From NCBI RefSeq assembly GCF_003334305.1, contig NZ_QOWS01000002.1: a stretch of DNA of 64,000 bases; one strand, written 5' to 3'. This DNA comes from Escherichia coli. Its GTDB lineage: Bacteria > Pseudomonadota > Gammaproteobacteria > Enterobacterales > Enterobacteriaceae. Below, piece after piece: positions 2,405 through 20,945 of this stretch; the first letter of the stretch is position 1; each line of letters opens with the position of its first letter. The notes under the pieces were generated by a model. That model saw only the letters and a list, made by a program, of their open reading frames with translations, made no database searches and was not told the origin of the DNA. Both the position numbers and the translations under genes were made by a program.

Positions 2405-3008
2405 TGTAGTAATCTCAAACTTATATTGGGGTGGTTTGTTGAGGTAATAATAGAGCCTTAAATTCAGTTGTGCAATAGCCAGGAATGTAAGGAATTCAAA
2501 ATTGTTCTTTATTTTGTGCCGCCAATAAATATCTTTTCATAAAATTAGCCAGAAAAGACGCGGCATATAGCCCTATTTACACCGATGATTTCGCAGCACG
2601 TGAGGTTAAAACTTCCTGATTCATGTCACATTTTATGGGGAGATTATCGTAGGCTGACGACCTTTCAGTCTTCTGTATTAGTTGTGTTTACGAGAATTCC
2701 CTATTAAGCGAATGATGAAAAGTAGAACAGTCGCAATAAGAGCATGGACTTAGTATTGCACTATCTCCTGGAGGTCAACAGAGGGCTATTACTTGCGCAA
2801 CAGGTTAAAGATTGTGAATAGTTACCAGCAGTCATTTACCCGCTTATAACAAGCGAGGCAGTTGTAATGATAGCTCAGAAGGATTATGCAAGGCTTCGTA
2901 AGGGAGAACGCATATACCCACTTCTGTGCATACTGTTGAGCTGAAAAACTGACGAATTATGATAAACTCCAGCCAACTTTATTTCATATCATTGAGGGCC
3001 TGTGGCTG

Positions 3009-3626
3009 ATGGCACAGCTATATTTCTACTATTCCGCAATGAATGCGGGTAAGTCTACAGCATTGTTGCAATCTTCATACAATTACCAGGAACGCGGCAT
3101 GCGCACTGTCGTATATACGGCAGAAATTGATGATCGCTTTGGTGCCGGGAAAGTCAGTTCGCGTATAGGTTTGTCATCGCCTGCAAAATTATTTAACCAA
3201 AATTCATCATTATTTGATGAGATTCGTGCGGAACATGAACAGCAGGCAATTCATTGCGTACTGGTTGATGAATGCCAGTTTTTAACCAGACAACAAGTAT
3301 ATGAATTATCGGAGGTTGTCGATCAACTCGATATACCCGTACTTTGTTATGGTTTACGTACCGATTTTCGAGGTGAATTATTTATTGGCAGCCAATACTT
3401 ACTGGCATGGTCCGACAAACTGGTTGAATTAAAAACCATCTGTTTTTGTGGCCGTAAAGCAAGCATGGTGCTGCGTCTTGATCAAGCAGGCAGACCTTAT
3501 AACGAAGGTGAGCAGGTGGTAATTGGTGGTAATGAACGATACGTTTCTGTATGCCGTAAACACTATAAAGAGGCGTTACAAGTCGGCTCATTAACGGCTA
3601 TTCAGGAAAGGCATCGCCACGATTAA
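3009..3626 (+). CDS. tdk: Thymidine kinase
   Basis: 205 aa ORF with P-loop (NAGKST) and C-terminal zinc-binding Cys pairs; matches Tdk. Confidence 0.95.
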
Positions 3627-16298: not shown

Positions 16299-17552
16299 CT
16301 ATTTTTGCACCGATTCTTTACTGTCAGCTTTCGTTTCTTGTTCATCGTTATCGCTGAAAATACCATGACCTGAGTTCAACAACATTGAAACGAGCATATC
16401 ATTATTAATCTCTTCACCGTTTAAAACTCGCGCCAGAATTTCGCTGCCAAACAGTTGCGGTGAGAGAATGATATCCGGATGTACCATCTTAATCTTATTC
16501 AGGTTTTTGCTATCACTGACGGCGAGAACTGTTTTGACATCACTGCTCATATCTTTTGCCGAGAGTACAACAAACGCGTTATCTGCATCGTTATCACTCA
16601 GCGCCAGAATGGCCCGGCATCGATCGATTCCCGCTTTCTTTAATACTGAACTGTCATTACTGTCACCGGGGATAACATCAGCGTTATCGCCTAAGCGTTG
16701 CTCAAGTTGCTTGATATCATCTTCAGGCAAGTTGCTGATAACCGTTACGTTTTGTCCGCGTTGATTCAGTTGCAGGATCGTATTGATGGCGAGAATCGAA
16801 TGTCCGCAAACAATAAAATGATCTTTACGATGCATTGTATGATTGTTTCCTTTTACAAGTTTGTTGAATCCCCCGCGGATAAGCGGACCAAAAATTGAGG
16901 TCATAGATGTGGCAAAAACGGTAATGCCGGAAATAATGACCGAAATAGTGAACAATCGTGCTGATTCAGAAACAGGGACAATATCTCCATAGCCGACGGT
17001 TGACATGGTTTCTATCGAAAAATAGAACGCGGTCATCAAACTTTCTATTCGCGGATTAAAACCTTCGCTTAAATAAAGCGCACCGTAGGTTGAGTAAAAC
17101 AGTAATGTCGTGAAACTAATAAATGCAAAAATTGTCCCGGCTGCGGCGCTACTGTGGGAGAAGTCTTTGCGCAGTATCAGCAAAAACACCAGCGTAAAAA
17201 TGCAAAATCCAATACTAAATTTCAGCCAGGGATAAAAATGCAGGGTGTAAATTAGCGCTATCAACAACAAAATGATACTGATTGCCCATGCGAGCTTTGC
17301 CCGGAACAGTAAGCCAATGGAGTTCAGGACAAGAAAGACGCCGAGCATAAATAGTGGGGCGTTTGCCAGCAAGGAGAGATCCAACTCTGAAAATGCTTTG
17401 ATATGGAAAATATCAAGCAAATTGACCGACATACCATAGATTGTTTTAAAAATAAGCAATCCATTTAAAAAGACGGCCAGCGCGAGAATGTCGTGCCGTA
17501 GGGTCACCCATAAATTTGTTGCTGTTTGTTTGAATGTAGCCCAGTGACTCAC
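16299..17552 (-). CDS. kch: Voltage-gated potassium channel Kch
   Basis: ORF trimmed to GTG start giving MSHWATFKQTATNL... (417 aa); selectivity filter TVGYGD and C-terminal RCK/TrkA domain. Confidence 0.9.
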   Translation of the reverse strand: MSHWATFKQTATNLWVTLRHDILALAVFLNGLLIFKTIYGMSVNLLDIFHIKAFSELDLSLLANAPLFMLGVFLVLNSIGLLFRAKLAWAISIILLLIALIYTLHFYPWLKFSIGFCIFTLVFLLILRKDFSHSSAAAGTIFAFISFTTLLFYSTYGALYLSEGFNPRIESLMTAFYFSIETMSTVGYGDIVPVSESARLFTISVIISGITVFATSMTSIFGPLIRGGFNKLVKGNNHTMHRKDHFIVCGHSILAINTILQLNQRGQNVTVISNLPEDDIKQLEQRLGDNADVIPGDSNDSSVLKKAGIDRCRAILALSDNDADNAFVVLSAKDMSSDVKTVLAVSDSKNLNKIKMVHPDIILSPQLFGSEILARVLNGEEINNDMLVSMLLNSGHGIFSDNDEQETKADSKESVQK

Positions 17553-17850
17553 TGATACCTCTGTAACCACAATTTTGTTTAATTATCTTAGCGTGCACAT
17601 TTTCTGAACATACATGCAGCGCGTGAATGTGTTAAACAATAGTAGATGACTTTATCGGCAGTAATCAAAGGTTTTGAGCGAGCAACTCTGCGTCAGGAAA
17701 GGGCATTTTCCTGAATATGTTCACATCATATAAAGAAATACAGATAAAGTTATTATCTGCTTGTGGTGGTGAATGCACTGACCGGCTATAAGGAAAGGCC
17801 AAACAAGAACACGGTTGCAAAAACCGTGCCCTTAAATATTGAATCTCTAT

Positions 17851-18147
17851 TCAGAACACTTTCTTAAATGGTTTCACTGAAACGTGTTCATAGACTCCTG
17901 CCGCTACGTACGGGTCAGCATCGGCCCAGGCCTGAGCTGCTTCCAGCGATTCAAATTCAGCAATAACGGTTGAGCCAGTAAATCCCGCAGCCCCTGGATC
18001 GTTACTGTCTACCGCTGGCATTGGACCAGCTGTCAACAAACGACCTTCATCATGCAGTAACTGTAAACGTGCTAAATGTGCCGGACGAACGGAAAGGCGT
18101 TTTTCGAGGCTATCAGCTTTGTCTTGAGCGTAAATAACATACAACAC
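17851..18147 (-). CDS. yciI: YciI-like protein (Dabb-type fold)
   Basis: ORF trimmed to GTG start giving (M)[17 protein letters not shown]..., 98 aa; start codon checked in sequence. Confidence 0.8.
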
Positions 18148-18370
18148 GGGCACAACTCCTTGTTCGGGAAAGTTGTAAAGTACGTTATTTGAAAGGGCGA
18201 AGATCTGCAACGGAAAGATGATGTCTTTGTTAAGACCATGCATAAATTAAGGTCAATTACGCCAAAAATGACATTTTCACTGATCCTGATCGTCTTGCCT
18301 TATTGAATATGATTGCTATTTGCATTTAAAATCGAGACCTGGTTTTTCTACTGAAATGATTATGACTTCA

Positions 18371-19090
18371 ATGACCCTTGATTTACCTCGCCGCTTCCCC
18401 TGGCCGACGTTACTTTCGGTCTGCATTCATGGTGCTGTTGTGGCGGGTCTGCTCTATACCTCGGTACATCAGGTTATTGAACTACCTGCGCCTGCGCAGC
18501 CAATTTCTGTCACGATGGTTGCGCCTGCTGATCTCGAACCGCCACAAGCCGTTCAGCCGCCACCGGAGCCGGTGGTAGAGCCAGAACCGGAACCTGAGCC
18601 GATCCCCGAACCACCAAAAGAAGCACCGGCGGTCATTGAAAAGCCGAAGCCGAAACCTAAGCCAAAACCGAAGCCGGTGAAAAAGGTACAGGAGCAGCCA
18701 AAACGCGATGTCAAACCCGTAGAGTCGCGTCCGGCATCACCGTTTGAAAATACGGCACCCGCACGCCTGACATCAAGTACGGCAACGGCTGCAACCAGCA
18801 AGCCGGTTACCAGTGTGGCTTCAGGACCACGCGCATTAAGCCGTAATCAGCCGCAGTATCCGGCACGAGCACAGGCATTGCGCATTGAAGGGCAGGTTAA
18901 AGTTAAATTTGACGTCACGCCGGATGGTCGCGTGGATAACGTACAAATCCTCTCAGCCAAGCCTGCGAACATGTTTGAGCGTGAGGTGAAAAATGCGATG
19001 CGCAGATGGCGTTATGAGCCGGGTAAGCCAGGCAGTGGGATTGTGGTGAATATCCTGTTTAAAATTAACGGCACCACCGAAATTCAGTAA
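18371..19090 (+). CDS. tonB: TonB energy transducer
   Basis: ORF trimmed to [33 protein letters not shown] (239 aa); Pro-rich (EP)n/(KP)n spacer and C-terminal TonB domain. Confidence 0.95.
18560..18690 (+). repeat. Short tandem codon repeats encoding the TonB proline-rich spacer
   Basis: Repeated gaa/gag-ccn then aag-ccn codon units encoding [12 protein letters not shown]...[12 protein letters not shown]. Confidence 0.8.
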
Positions 19091-19097
19091 GCAGAAA

Positions 19098-19127
19098 GTC
19101 AAAAGCCTCCGACCGGAGGCTTTTGAC
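19098..19127. terminator. Bidirectional rho-independent terminator between tonB and yciA
   Basis: Perfect 13 bp stem gtcaaaagcctcc / ggaggcttttgac with gacc loop; A-run and T-run give U-tracts on either strand. Confidence 0.85.
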
Positions 19128-19129
19128 TA

Positions 19130-19528
19130 TTACTCAACAGGTAAGGCGCGAGGTTTTCCTTCAGGATCAACCGCGACATACTTAAATAATGCTTCTGTCG
19201 CTTTATAGCGTTGCCCGATTGGTTCAGACGCTACTTTTTTCACCCACACTTCAATATTAATGCTGACCGATGTCGTCCCTTTCTGGACACAGCGTGCATA
19301 GCAGCACACCACATCGCCGACCGCAACCGGCCGTAAGAAAGTCATTCCTTCAACCCGCACGGTCACTACGCGACCGTGGGCAATTTCTTTCGCCAGAATA
19401 GCGCCGCCAATATCCATTTGTGACATTAACCAACCACCAAAGATGTCACCGTTGGCATTGGTATCGGCGGGCATGGCTAAAGTACGTAAAACAAGATCGC
19501 CCTGAGGGACGTTATGTGTTGTAGACAT
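19130..19528 (-). CDS. yciA: Acyl-CoA thioesterase (hotdog fold)
   Basis: 132 aa ORF, length and position match YciA. Confidence 0.9.
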   Translation of the reverse strand: MSTTHNVPQGDLVLRTLAMPADTNANGDIFGGWLMSQMDIGGAILAKEIAHGRVVTVRVEGMTFLRPVAVGDVVCCYARCVQKGTTSVSINIEVWVKKVASEPIGQRYKATEALFKYVAVDPEGKPRALPVE

Positions 19529-19632
19529 GGTAAAACCGACTTAAAAGGAAAATCACAGGCGCGATGCTACTATGATTTTCCTGAGGAGAACAGAGGAGAT
19601 ACAGCGCCAGCCCCGAAGGACTGGCAGTCTGG

Positions 19633-20172
19633 TTAGGATTTATCTTCCTGCGGCATGTGGCGGTAGATATAGATACCGCTTAACAATGTGAAGATTAAGG
19701 TAAGGGCGGTCAGTCCAAAGACTTTAAAGTTGACCCAAATATTTTGCGGCAGCCAGAATGCGATGTAGATGTTTGCCAGACCGCAAAGGATAAAGAAAAC
19801 AGCCCAGGCCAGATTCAGCTTCGACCATACCGGTTGCGGCAGCGTGAGTTCTTTACCCAGCATCCGCTGAATTAGCGGCTTTTTCATCACCCATTGGCTG
19901 ACTAACAGGGCTCCCGCAAACAGAGCATAAATGACTGTAACCTTCCATTTAATAAACTCATCATTGTGGAAGAACAGCGTCAAGCCACCGAAGACGACCA
20001 CCAGAACAAAAGTGATCAGGGCCATCTTCTCAACCTTACGAAAGCGAACCCAGCTATAGATAAGCACAATCGCCGTGGCGACGATCAGCGCCGCAGTAGC
20101 CGCATAGATGTCATAAATCTTGTAAAACGCGAAAAAGACAACCAGCGGTAAAAAATCAAGAAACTGCTTCAT
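19633..20172 (-). CDS. yciB: Inner membrane (septation-associated) protein YciB
   Basis: 179 aa multi-TM ORF, length matches YciB. Confidence 0.9.
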
Positions 20173-20201
20173 TTTACGATTCCGTAATCAAATGCTTAAG
20201 G

Positions 20202-20945
20202 TTATTGGCGAATCAACATATACAGGCGGAACAGATAGATGAGCAATATGGCAGAAATCAGGTTGCTCAAGGTGTTCGCCAGTACGGCACCAATTTCCGG
20301 GGTTAATGCGGCAAAAGAAGAGGCAAAAAGCAGCAACAGTGTTTTTGCCAGCAACCAGCTCAGTACTGCGGGTGCCACCAGACGCATATTCGCCCAAGTC
20401 AGCCGCATACTGCTACGCATCGAGGCAAAAATGCCCATTTTGTCCTGTACCAGCATCACCGGTGCCAGGGCCAGTAAAATGGCCATGATAATTCCCGGAA
20501 CGACCACCAGCATGATGCCAATCTGTACTAAAAGGGTAGTCAGAAAAATCAGAATAAATAACTTGGGCAATATCGGCGCACTGGCACCAATAGCTCGCAG
20601 CGCACTGACTCTCTGACCCGCAGACACCAGCTGGATAATTAATATTACGCCTCCGGCGAGAATGGCGTTACCGATTAATCCTGAAAAAGTGGACGCCGCT
20701 GAAGCCTGCAGCAAAATTTGTTGCTGTTCCGGTGACATATTCTGAACCAGGTCGAACAACCCACTACTGCCGCTAACGGGCACGCCGTCATTGAGCTGCG
20801 CAAGCTGTGCATCACTGGGTGAGAAAACATGCCCTAACACCACTGTGATAAACGCACATAGCAACGATACCAACAGAATGGTCATAAATTGATTACGGAA
20901 GAAATTTCCGGTGTCACGGTATACGGACTGCGCCGTGATAGACAT
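20202..20945 (-). CDS. yciC: UPF0259 inner membrane protein YciC
   Basis: 247 aa multi-TM ORF, length matches YciC. Confidence 0.9.

Follow-up and report, generated by a model that had tools for sequence, protein, structure and literature searches.

The TonB protein of Escherichia coli contains a proline-rich spacer assembled from Glu-Pro (EP) and Lys-Pro (KP) dipeptides, and the tonB locus examined here raises the question of whether the DNA encoding these dipeptides changes in length among strains and, if so, through which mutational process. The locus resides in a 64,000-nucleotide stretch of E. coli contig NZ_QOWS01000002.1 (assembly GCF_003334305.1), which in its entirety is called the window. 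An initial annotation had proposed that the EP and KP tracts between positions 18560 and 18690 are encoded by short direct repeats, that these repeats are a substrate for slipped-strand length variation, and that repeat number may differ between strains. To address these proposals, it is useful to establish what the gene is, how its repeats are built, and which repeat-number alleles occur in nature.

Judged from its sequence, the window gene is an enterobacterial-type TonB in its typical E. coli form. The predicted product matches the NCBIfam equivalog model NF008083 from end to end (residues 1-239 of 239; 536.8 bits versus a cutoff of 448) and also scores above the cutoff of NF008081 (465.9 versus 377). 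The match to TIGR01352 (tonB_Cterm) covers residues 161-233 with E = 1.4e-20, and both PF16031 and PF03544 are present in close homologues. The translation reveals S16-H20-L27-S31 at the N-terminus, which is the signal anchor motif of TonB (PMC12204202). Two oppositely charged X-Pro arms are found in domain II, Glu-Pro first and Lys-Pro second, a pairing that has been described for Enterobacterales (PMC12204202). As in E. coli K-12, the neighbors are yciI and yciA, both on the minus strand. Over its 720 nt, the gene shows 100% identity to tonB on several E. coli chromosomes and 99.0% to that of K-12, from which it differs by seven SNPs, two of them nonsynonymous, that leave the repeat count untouched. 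The yciI-tonB-yciA context, the EPx4/KPx6 arrangement (four consecutive EP units and six consecutive KP units) and the repeat codons are all identical in the two genes. The window protein carries Ala51 and Ala87 where K-12 TonB carries Thr51 and Val87. Ala87 (codon GCG), a residue of the linker joining the EP arm to the KP arm, is absent from the other alleles fetched, and 100% identical copies of the window allele, Ala87 included, occur in several clinical isolates.

Some features near the gene deserve mention in their own right. Upstream of tonB is a single sigma-70-like promoter match (TTGAAT, an 18-nt spacer, and TAAAAT), which overlaps the AT-rich GATTGCTATTTGCATT stretch that we take to be the place of the tonB Fur-binding site. 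Between the convergent tonB and yciA genes is a 14-bp GC-rich hairpin, AGTCAAAAGCCTCCGGTCGGAGGCTTTTGACT, flanked on both sides by runs of T or A. Our scan called this hairpin on the minus strand only, and it is presumably the bidirectional tonB terminator. An Rfam scan of positions 17000-20500 returned no match. The coordinates of these and the following features are collected in the table.

Table. Features of the tonB locus, with positions numbered from the first letter of the window
Feature	Position	Strand	Basis or remark
Sigma-70-like promoter match	18303-18332		Sole such match upstream of tonB
tonB CDS	18371-19090	+	239 aa plus stop; NCBIfam NF008083 and nucleotide identity
Ala51 codon	18521-18523		
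Antisense ORF	18553-18801	-	82 aa, TTG start, Gly/Ser/Phe-rich
Proline-rich spacer (residues 66-102), with an acidic EP arm, a short linker and a basic KP arm	18566-18676	+	Codon table
E66-P67	18566-18571	+	Codon table
AGCCGGTG, 8-nt direct repeat, family D1	Left 18567-18574, right 18672-18679 (105 nt apart)	+	Ends of the 35-codon deletion (203 aa)
EPx4 tract (EPEPEPEP, E70-P77), GAGCCA GAACCG GAACCT GAGCCG	18578-18601	+	Codon table
GAACCG GAACCT near-perfect tandem pair (GAACCGGAACCT)	18584-18595	+	Alignment with KE48
E80-P81	18608-18613	+	Codon table
Ala87 codon	18629-18631		
KPx6 tract (K91-P102), AAGCCG AAGCCG AAACCT AAGCCA AAACCG AAGCCG	18641-18676	+	Tandem Repeats Finder, codon table
AAGCCG AAGCCG (AAGCCGAAGCCG), only perfect tandem copy in the KP tract	18641-18652	+	Alignments
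CCGAAGCCG, 9-nt direct repeat, family D3	Left 18644-18652, right 18668-18676	+	Ends of the 24-nt deletion to KPx2
AGCCAAAAC, 9-nt direct repeat, family D5	Left 18660-18668, right 18696-18704	+	Ends of the 36-nt deletion (227 aa)
Codons V106-Q107	18686-18691		Changed in the 717-nt allele
AGTCAAAAGCCTCCGGTCGGAGGCTTTTGACT hairpin	19097-19128		Called on the minus strand only

The codon table and the NF008083 match confirm that the EP and KP tracts fall within 18560-18690 of the TonB spacer, whose boundaries (66-100 and 70-102) are those used in earlier deletion studies (PMC3005593). The proposal that short direct repeats encode both tracts holds for the KP tract but fits the EP tract only weakly. 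Tandem Repeats Finder calls the KP tract with a period of 6 and 6.0 copies, and its identity at a lag of 6 nt (23 of 30 positions) exceeds that of every other 36-nt stretch in the 64-kb window. For the EP tract the program makes no call, and the corresponding identity (13 of 18) is equalled or exceeded at 18 window positions, its own included. The EP tract is thus a peptide repeat that is weak at the DNA level, because the third codon positions differ. Over the entire 18560-18690 region the lag-6 identity is 0.48 versus 0.28 in the remainder of tonB, and the higher value was reached by 30 of 5,000 codon shuffles. In addition to the imperfect 6-nt tandem repeat, the spacer DNA is scattered with direct repeats of 4-9 nt.

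We also considered the possibility that codon choice within the repeats is unusually mixed or unusually uniform, and rejected it. There is one pair of identical adjacent 6-mers in the KP tract and none in the EP tract, as expected from typical E. coli codon usage, and therefore there is no sign of selection for or against perfection of the repeat at the DNA level.

The survey of repeat number drew on 5,426 complete E. coli genomes, in 5,423 of which tonB was found. Short probes were used whose identity bands tell SNPs from 6-nt indels, and the band counts are approximate. Counted in this manner, EP and KP units are not invariant, and KPx2, KPx5, KPx6, KPx7, EPx4, and EPx5 all occur among complete genomes, so the suggestion that strains might differ in repeat number has proved correct. 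The variants are rare, accounting for about 2.4% of complete genomes. KPx7 is present in approximately 118-120 complete genomes: the 88-nt KP probe from K-12 placed 120 records at 90-95% identity, the band in which a 6-nt indel should fall, with up to four records of less than 80% coverage standing outside allele assignment, and a KPx7 probe yielded 112 exact and 15 near matches. Exact probe matches place KPx5 in two complete genomes (CAU16175 and PEC240) and KPx2 in three (7_33_46A, F2_407_2_2, and DEC9B). Single-unit KP gains therefore far exceed single-unit losses. The EP probe was covered in all 5,424 records, nine of which fall in the 90-95% band; EPx5 was recognized in two complete genomes (KE48 and GF3-3), from 2 of 9 records examined in this band, and EPx4 is carried by at least 99.8% of complete genomes. 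Several variant proteins have their own RefSeq accessions (WP_001306569.1, WP_024198338.1, WP_097292190.1, WP_096317561.1, and WP_001429584.1).

Metagenome contigs were searched with anchored flanks and a variable gap, an approach that also gave 24 chance matches in unrelated DNA. Because all 37 tonB copies recovered from these contigs share KPx6 with about 97.5% of the 5,423 tonB-bearing complete genomes, the KP tract is not hypermutable.

The survey also produced observations on tonB that lie outside the EP and KP repeats. In a spread sample of 60 rows, tonB lengths of 720, 726, 717, and 719 nt were encountered. The 717-nt allele lacks Gln107 through conversion of GGTACAGGAG to GGTGGAG, as seen in the fetched loci L002, L003, and L009. 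This 3-nt deletion, just 3′ of the KP tract and outside the repeats, is the commonest length variant of tonB, and it was present in 12 of 60 evenly spaced rows, all from a group that is about 97.5% identical to the window. In XL1-Blue (NZ_CP132550.1, tonB at 2501-3202), an IS4-like element annotated as an ISVsa5-family transposase interrupts the gene near its 3′ end; the product in this assembly has 233 residues and an altered C-terminus, so the strain may be TonB-defective. The gene of ETEC1734 (NZ_CP122801.1, 301-1019) is annotated as a frameshifted pseudogene of 719 nt that loses its frame after about codon 10, and this 1-nt change may be a true null allele or a sequencing error. The KE48 record NZ_CP141085.1, named 'plasmid unnamed1' (385,579 bp), carries cls-yciY-kch-yciI-tonB-yciA-yciB-yciC-ompW, the usual chromosomal gene order, and is probably a mislabelled chromosome fragment. 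Overall, 13 tonB places were reported on records termed plasmids.

The positions of the length changes are informative with regard to mechanism. In alignments, the unit gained in KPx7 and the unit lost in KPx5 map alike to the only perfect tandem pair of the KP tract. Among the EPx5 alleles, that of KE48 duplicates one GAACCG within the near-perfect EP pair, and that of GF3-3 gains another unit, GAGCCT/CCTGAG, directly 3′ of this pair. A protein search furthermore uncovered TonB proteins from E. coli and Shigella that are shortened to as few as 200 residues, some from single draft contigs, in which the missing residues are nearly always within the proline-rich region or extend just past its 3′ end.

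For five deletion alleles, the DNA was compared in each case with the closest full-length haplotype. The 24-nt deletion that generates KPx2 (30 nt relative to a KPx7 allele) ends in the D3 repeats, the 36-nt deletion that generates a 227-residue protein ends in the D5 repeats, and the 105-nt deletion that generates a 203-residue protein ends in the D1 repeats. All three repeat families had been identified in the window ahead of any variant. Junctions of the remaining two alleles belong to no such family: a deletion of 63 nt (69 nt relative to a KPx7 allele; 218 residues) ends at AGCC within AACCTGAGCC and AACCTAAGCC, one of 48 or 54 nt (223 residues) ends at AGCC, and the exact microhomology in both is only 4 nt. 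Apart from the missing 105 nt, the loci L017 and L018 show no mismatches to L002, and L020, apart from its missing 36 nt, likewise shows none to K-12 tonB. The 218-residue allele was found in 38 blocks of the assembly collection and the 203-residue allele, which lacks approximately residues 67-101 on a background that is also without Gln107, on 11 contigs. The 223-residue allele (L021 and L022) is best explained by loss of 54 nt from a KPx7 parent, with two mismatches to L001; if this is correct, it would be a second length change on an allele that had already expanded. Probes for the 36-nt and 48-nt deletion junctions found no single-piece match among complete genomes, and these alleles come from draft and Logan assemblies only.

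Every length variant of the series (±6, -24, -36, -48/54, -63, and -105 nt) is in frame, because each event is a multiple of 3 nt, and encodes a full TonB. The gain or loss of a unit at a perfect pair, combined with deletions that end in direct repeats, is the classic signature of slipped-strand mispairing. Thus, the one-unit KP changes and the larger deletions alike bear out the idea that these repeats are a substrate for such variation, and we infer that replication slippage is the molecular process involved.

We are highly confident that the best explanation for these findings is a proline-rich spacer of the energy transducer TonB that undergoes in-frame repeat slippage and whose variants are tolerated at low frequency. 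The acidic (Glu-Pro)n and basic (Lys-Pro)n arms would create an extended rod, giving the C-terminal domain access to outer-membrane transporters. Because each dipeptide fixes the first two bases of both of its codons (GAR-CCN or AAR-CCN), the DNA is an imperfect 6-nt tandem repeat, copies of which would misalign occasionally at replication. A slip of one register on AAGCCGAAGCCG would then add or remove a KP unit, a slip on or beside GAACCGGAACCT would add an EP unit, and misalignment of more distant copies would cause the loss of 24 to 105 nt. Variants would survive at low frequency in natural lineages because the spacer tolerates changes in length, with KPx6/EPx4 staying the vast majority.

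How much the protein might be altered can be estimated from polyproline II geometry, in which the rise is about 0.31 nm per residue. On this model, one unit would change the reach of the spacer by about 0.6 nm, KPx2 would be about 2.5 nm shorter, and the 35-codon deletion about 11 nm shorter. The TonB spacer has been described as an extended polyproline II rod across the periplasm (PMC12204202). Removal of residues 66-100 or 70-102 from TonB has no effect unless the periplasm is expanded, in which case activity falls by about 50% (PMC3005593). By analogy with these engineered proteins, spacer-length variants are probably close to functionally neutral.

Other explanations for the allele series can be weighed against recurrent slippage. 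Perhaps the length variants arose once or a few times and were then spread by homologous recombination of short tonB stretches, a scenario that we judge to be unlikely even though parts of the data are hospitable to it. Four or more SNP backgrounds carry KPx7 (the main allele WP_001306569.1, WP_024198338.1, WP_097292190.1, and a fourth haplotype, FEX669), and the WP_024198338.1 allele, found in three strains, is 0 SNPs from K-12 tonB. Since there is no SNP that distinguishes K-12 from the main KPx7 haplotype between alignment columns ~160 and 401 (about 240 nt around the tract), a conversion tract shorter than this would be traceless, and short-patch recombination could explain part of the KPx7 spread. 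It is also relevant that tonB of Klebsiella pneumoniae is one of the two MLST genes with statistically significant intragenic recombination (PMC2656620). However, the two EPx5 alleles differ in both inserted unit and background, the KE48 allele being 0 SNPs from a normal allele lacking Gln107, and so must be independent events. KPx2 and KPx5 share one background (0 SNPs apart, and 2 SNPs from a KPx7 allele), which demands several events regardless of how the alleles were spread, and each of the larger deletions has its own junction. Short-patch recombination fails to account for two distinct EP insertions, and equally for the three KP lengths that occur on a single background. We consider it more improbable still that the variants are sequencing or assembly artefacts of a repetitive stretch, indeed exceedingly so. 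The 1-nt frameshift of ETEC1734 is possibly an error and some variant proteins rest on single draft contigs, but the KP tract, at 36 nt, is below any sequencing read length, the variants are all in-frame multiples of 3 nt, and identical alleles, with their own RefSeq protein accessions, are shared by many independent complete genomes of different laboratories.

A further alternative accepts the mutations as real and assigns them a purpose: spacer length might be under diversifying or adaptive selection, with the repeats serving as a tuning knob for periplasmic reach or for susceptibility to TonB-dependent phages and colicins. Gains to KPx7 (~120 genomes on at least four backgrounds) do greatly outnumber losses to KPx5, and the 218- and 203-residue deletion alleles recur in the assembly collection. 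Yet units of 6 nt never switch expression on or off, the KP tract is imperfect and of one length in 97.5% of genomes, the excess of KPx7 is explicable by clonal expansion of a single lineage, and there is little effect when the whole region is deleted experimentally (PMC3005593). We therefore find this explanation very improbable. In its more specific form, it would hold that KPx2 through KPx7, EPx5, and the lineages lacking 12-35 residues reflect recurrent selection on TonB reach or on TonB-dependent phage and colicin killing rather than neutral drift, to which we assign a hardly better chance. If true, the repeated codons would be retained because they supply in-frame length mutants at little cost.

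The preferred reading, in-frame slippage in a tolerant spacer, invites comparison with the simple-sequence contingency loci of Haemophilus and Neisseria, whose phase-variable repeats undergo slipped-strand mispairing within coding regions. The likeness is that length changes occur at short tandem repeats inside a coding region. In contingency loci, a change in repeat number shifts the frame or promoter spacing and thereby switches expression, and the tracts are long, perfect, and frequently different among close relatives. Neither property is found at tonB, whose tract has a 6-nt unit, never loses frame, and includes only two perfect adjacent copies, with 97.5% of genomes sharing one length. 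The tonB tract is thus not a contingency locus or switch, because its units are 6 nt, all of its variants are in frame, and one length is dominant, although the mutational process is the same. Members of the Enterobacteriaceae usually have 3-5 EP and 3-5 KP units, and the third-position bases differ between species; therefore, selection keeps the peptide and not the DNA repeat.

Precedents for this variation exist, and the initial annotation was right to view the repeats as a known feature of TonB rather than a novelty (PMC2656620, PMC12204202, PMC3005593). Descriptions of the X-Pro repeats go back to the 1980s (Evans 1986 and Brewer 1990, as cited in PMC12204202). In an MLST study of 235 K. 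pneumoniae isolates, tonB was the sole gene of seven with indels, namely one 2-codon insertion and deletions of 4, 2, and 2 codons (Brisse et al. 2009, PMC2656620). These indels of 2 or 4 codons resemble KPx5, KPx7, and EPx5 of E. coli, but they belong to another species and the text consulted does not state their position within tonB. The E. coli series extends beyond them with the 8-codon loss of KPx2 and, in draft assemblies, losses of 12-35 codons. Likewise, the engineered TonBΔ(66-100) and TonBΔ(70-102) proteins (Larsen, Wood and Postle 1993; Postle et al. 2010, PMC3005593) lack nearly the same segment as the natural 203-residue allele, in which the 35 codons between the AGCCGGTG repeats are missing. 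Unlike the engineered deletions, the natural allele is spontaneous, sits on the Gln107-lacking background, and is known from contigs of public assemblies. The literature searched yielded nothing relevant on natural in-frame deletions of tonB in E. coli isolates or on an E. coli allele series.

The same codons account for the Gly/Ser-rich open reading frame on the opposite strand, which the initial annotation had called a pseudo-ORF generated by the repeats. It exists as described. Gly, Ser, and Phe make up 55% of its residues, and it holds mirror images of the KP and EP tracts, the latter as GSGSGSGS. NCBIfam models do not match it, none of the RefSeq records examined annotates it, and an obvious ribosome-binding site is lacking. 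On compositional grounds, we regard this frame as a by-product of the EP and KP codons and not a gene, and the term pseudo-ORF as apt. The frame stays open because the antisense of CCN-GAR/AAR in that frame has no possible stop codon. That it is instead a real overlapping gene for a Gly/Ser/Phe-rich peptide is extremely improbable, even though a similar stop-free stretch (71-98 aa) is found in the same antisense frame of Salmonella, Citrobacter, and Raoultella tonB. Conservation of the EP/KP peptide is by itself enough to preserve such a stretch, the other antisense frames of these three genes have longer stop-free runs (140-238 aa), and at a Franconibacter-like locus the two longest do not include this frame. 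The TTG start, like the missing ribosome-binding site, family match, and annotation, also argues against a gene. A synonymous-site test is uninformative here, as position 3 of the antisense codons (18799) coincides with position 3 of the sense codons.

Taken as a whole, repeat variation in the TonB spacer is an already known and ordinary property of a length-tolerant spacer, and the dispensability and length tolerance of the region were established experimentally decades ago. The E. coli allele series is a direct extension of these facts. What is mildly new is that the series has been quantified and that it contains natural near-copies of the engineered proline-rich deletion. For E. coli biology, the implication is that differences in tonB length between strains are genuine in-frame repeat changes and not errors, which is useful for annotation, for allele-typing schemes, and for the scoring of 'tonB mutations' in resistance and phage studies. 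Moreover, natural alleles in which most of the proline-rich region is missing, although rare, are ready material for asking how long a spacer TonB needs.
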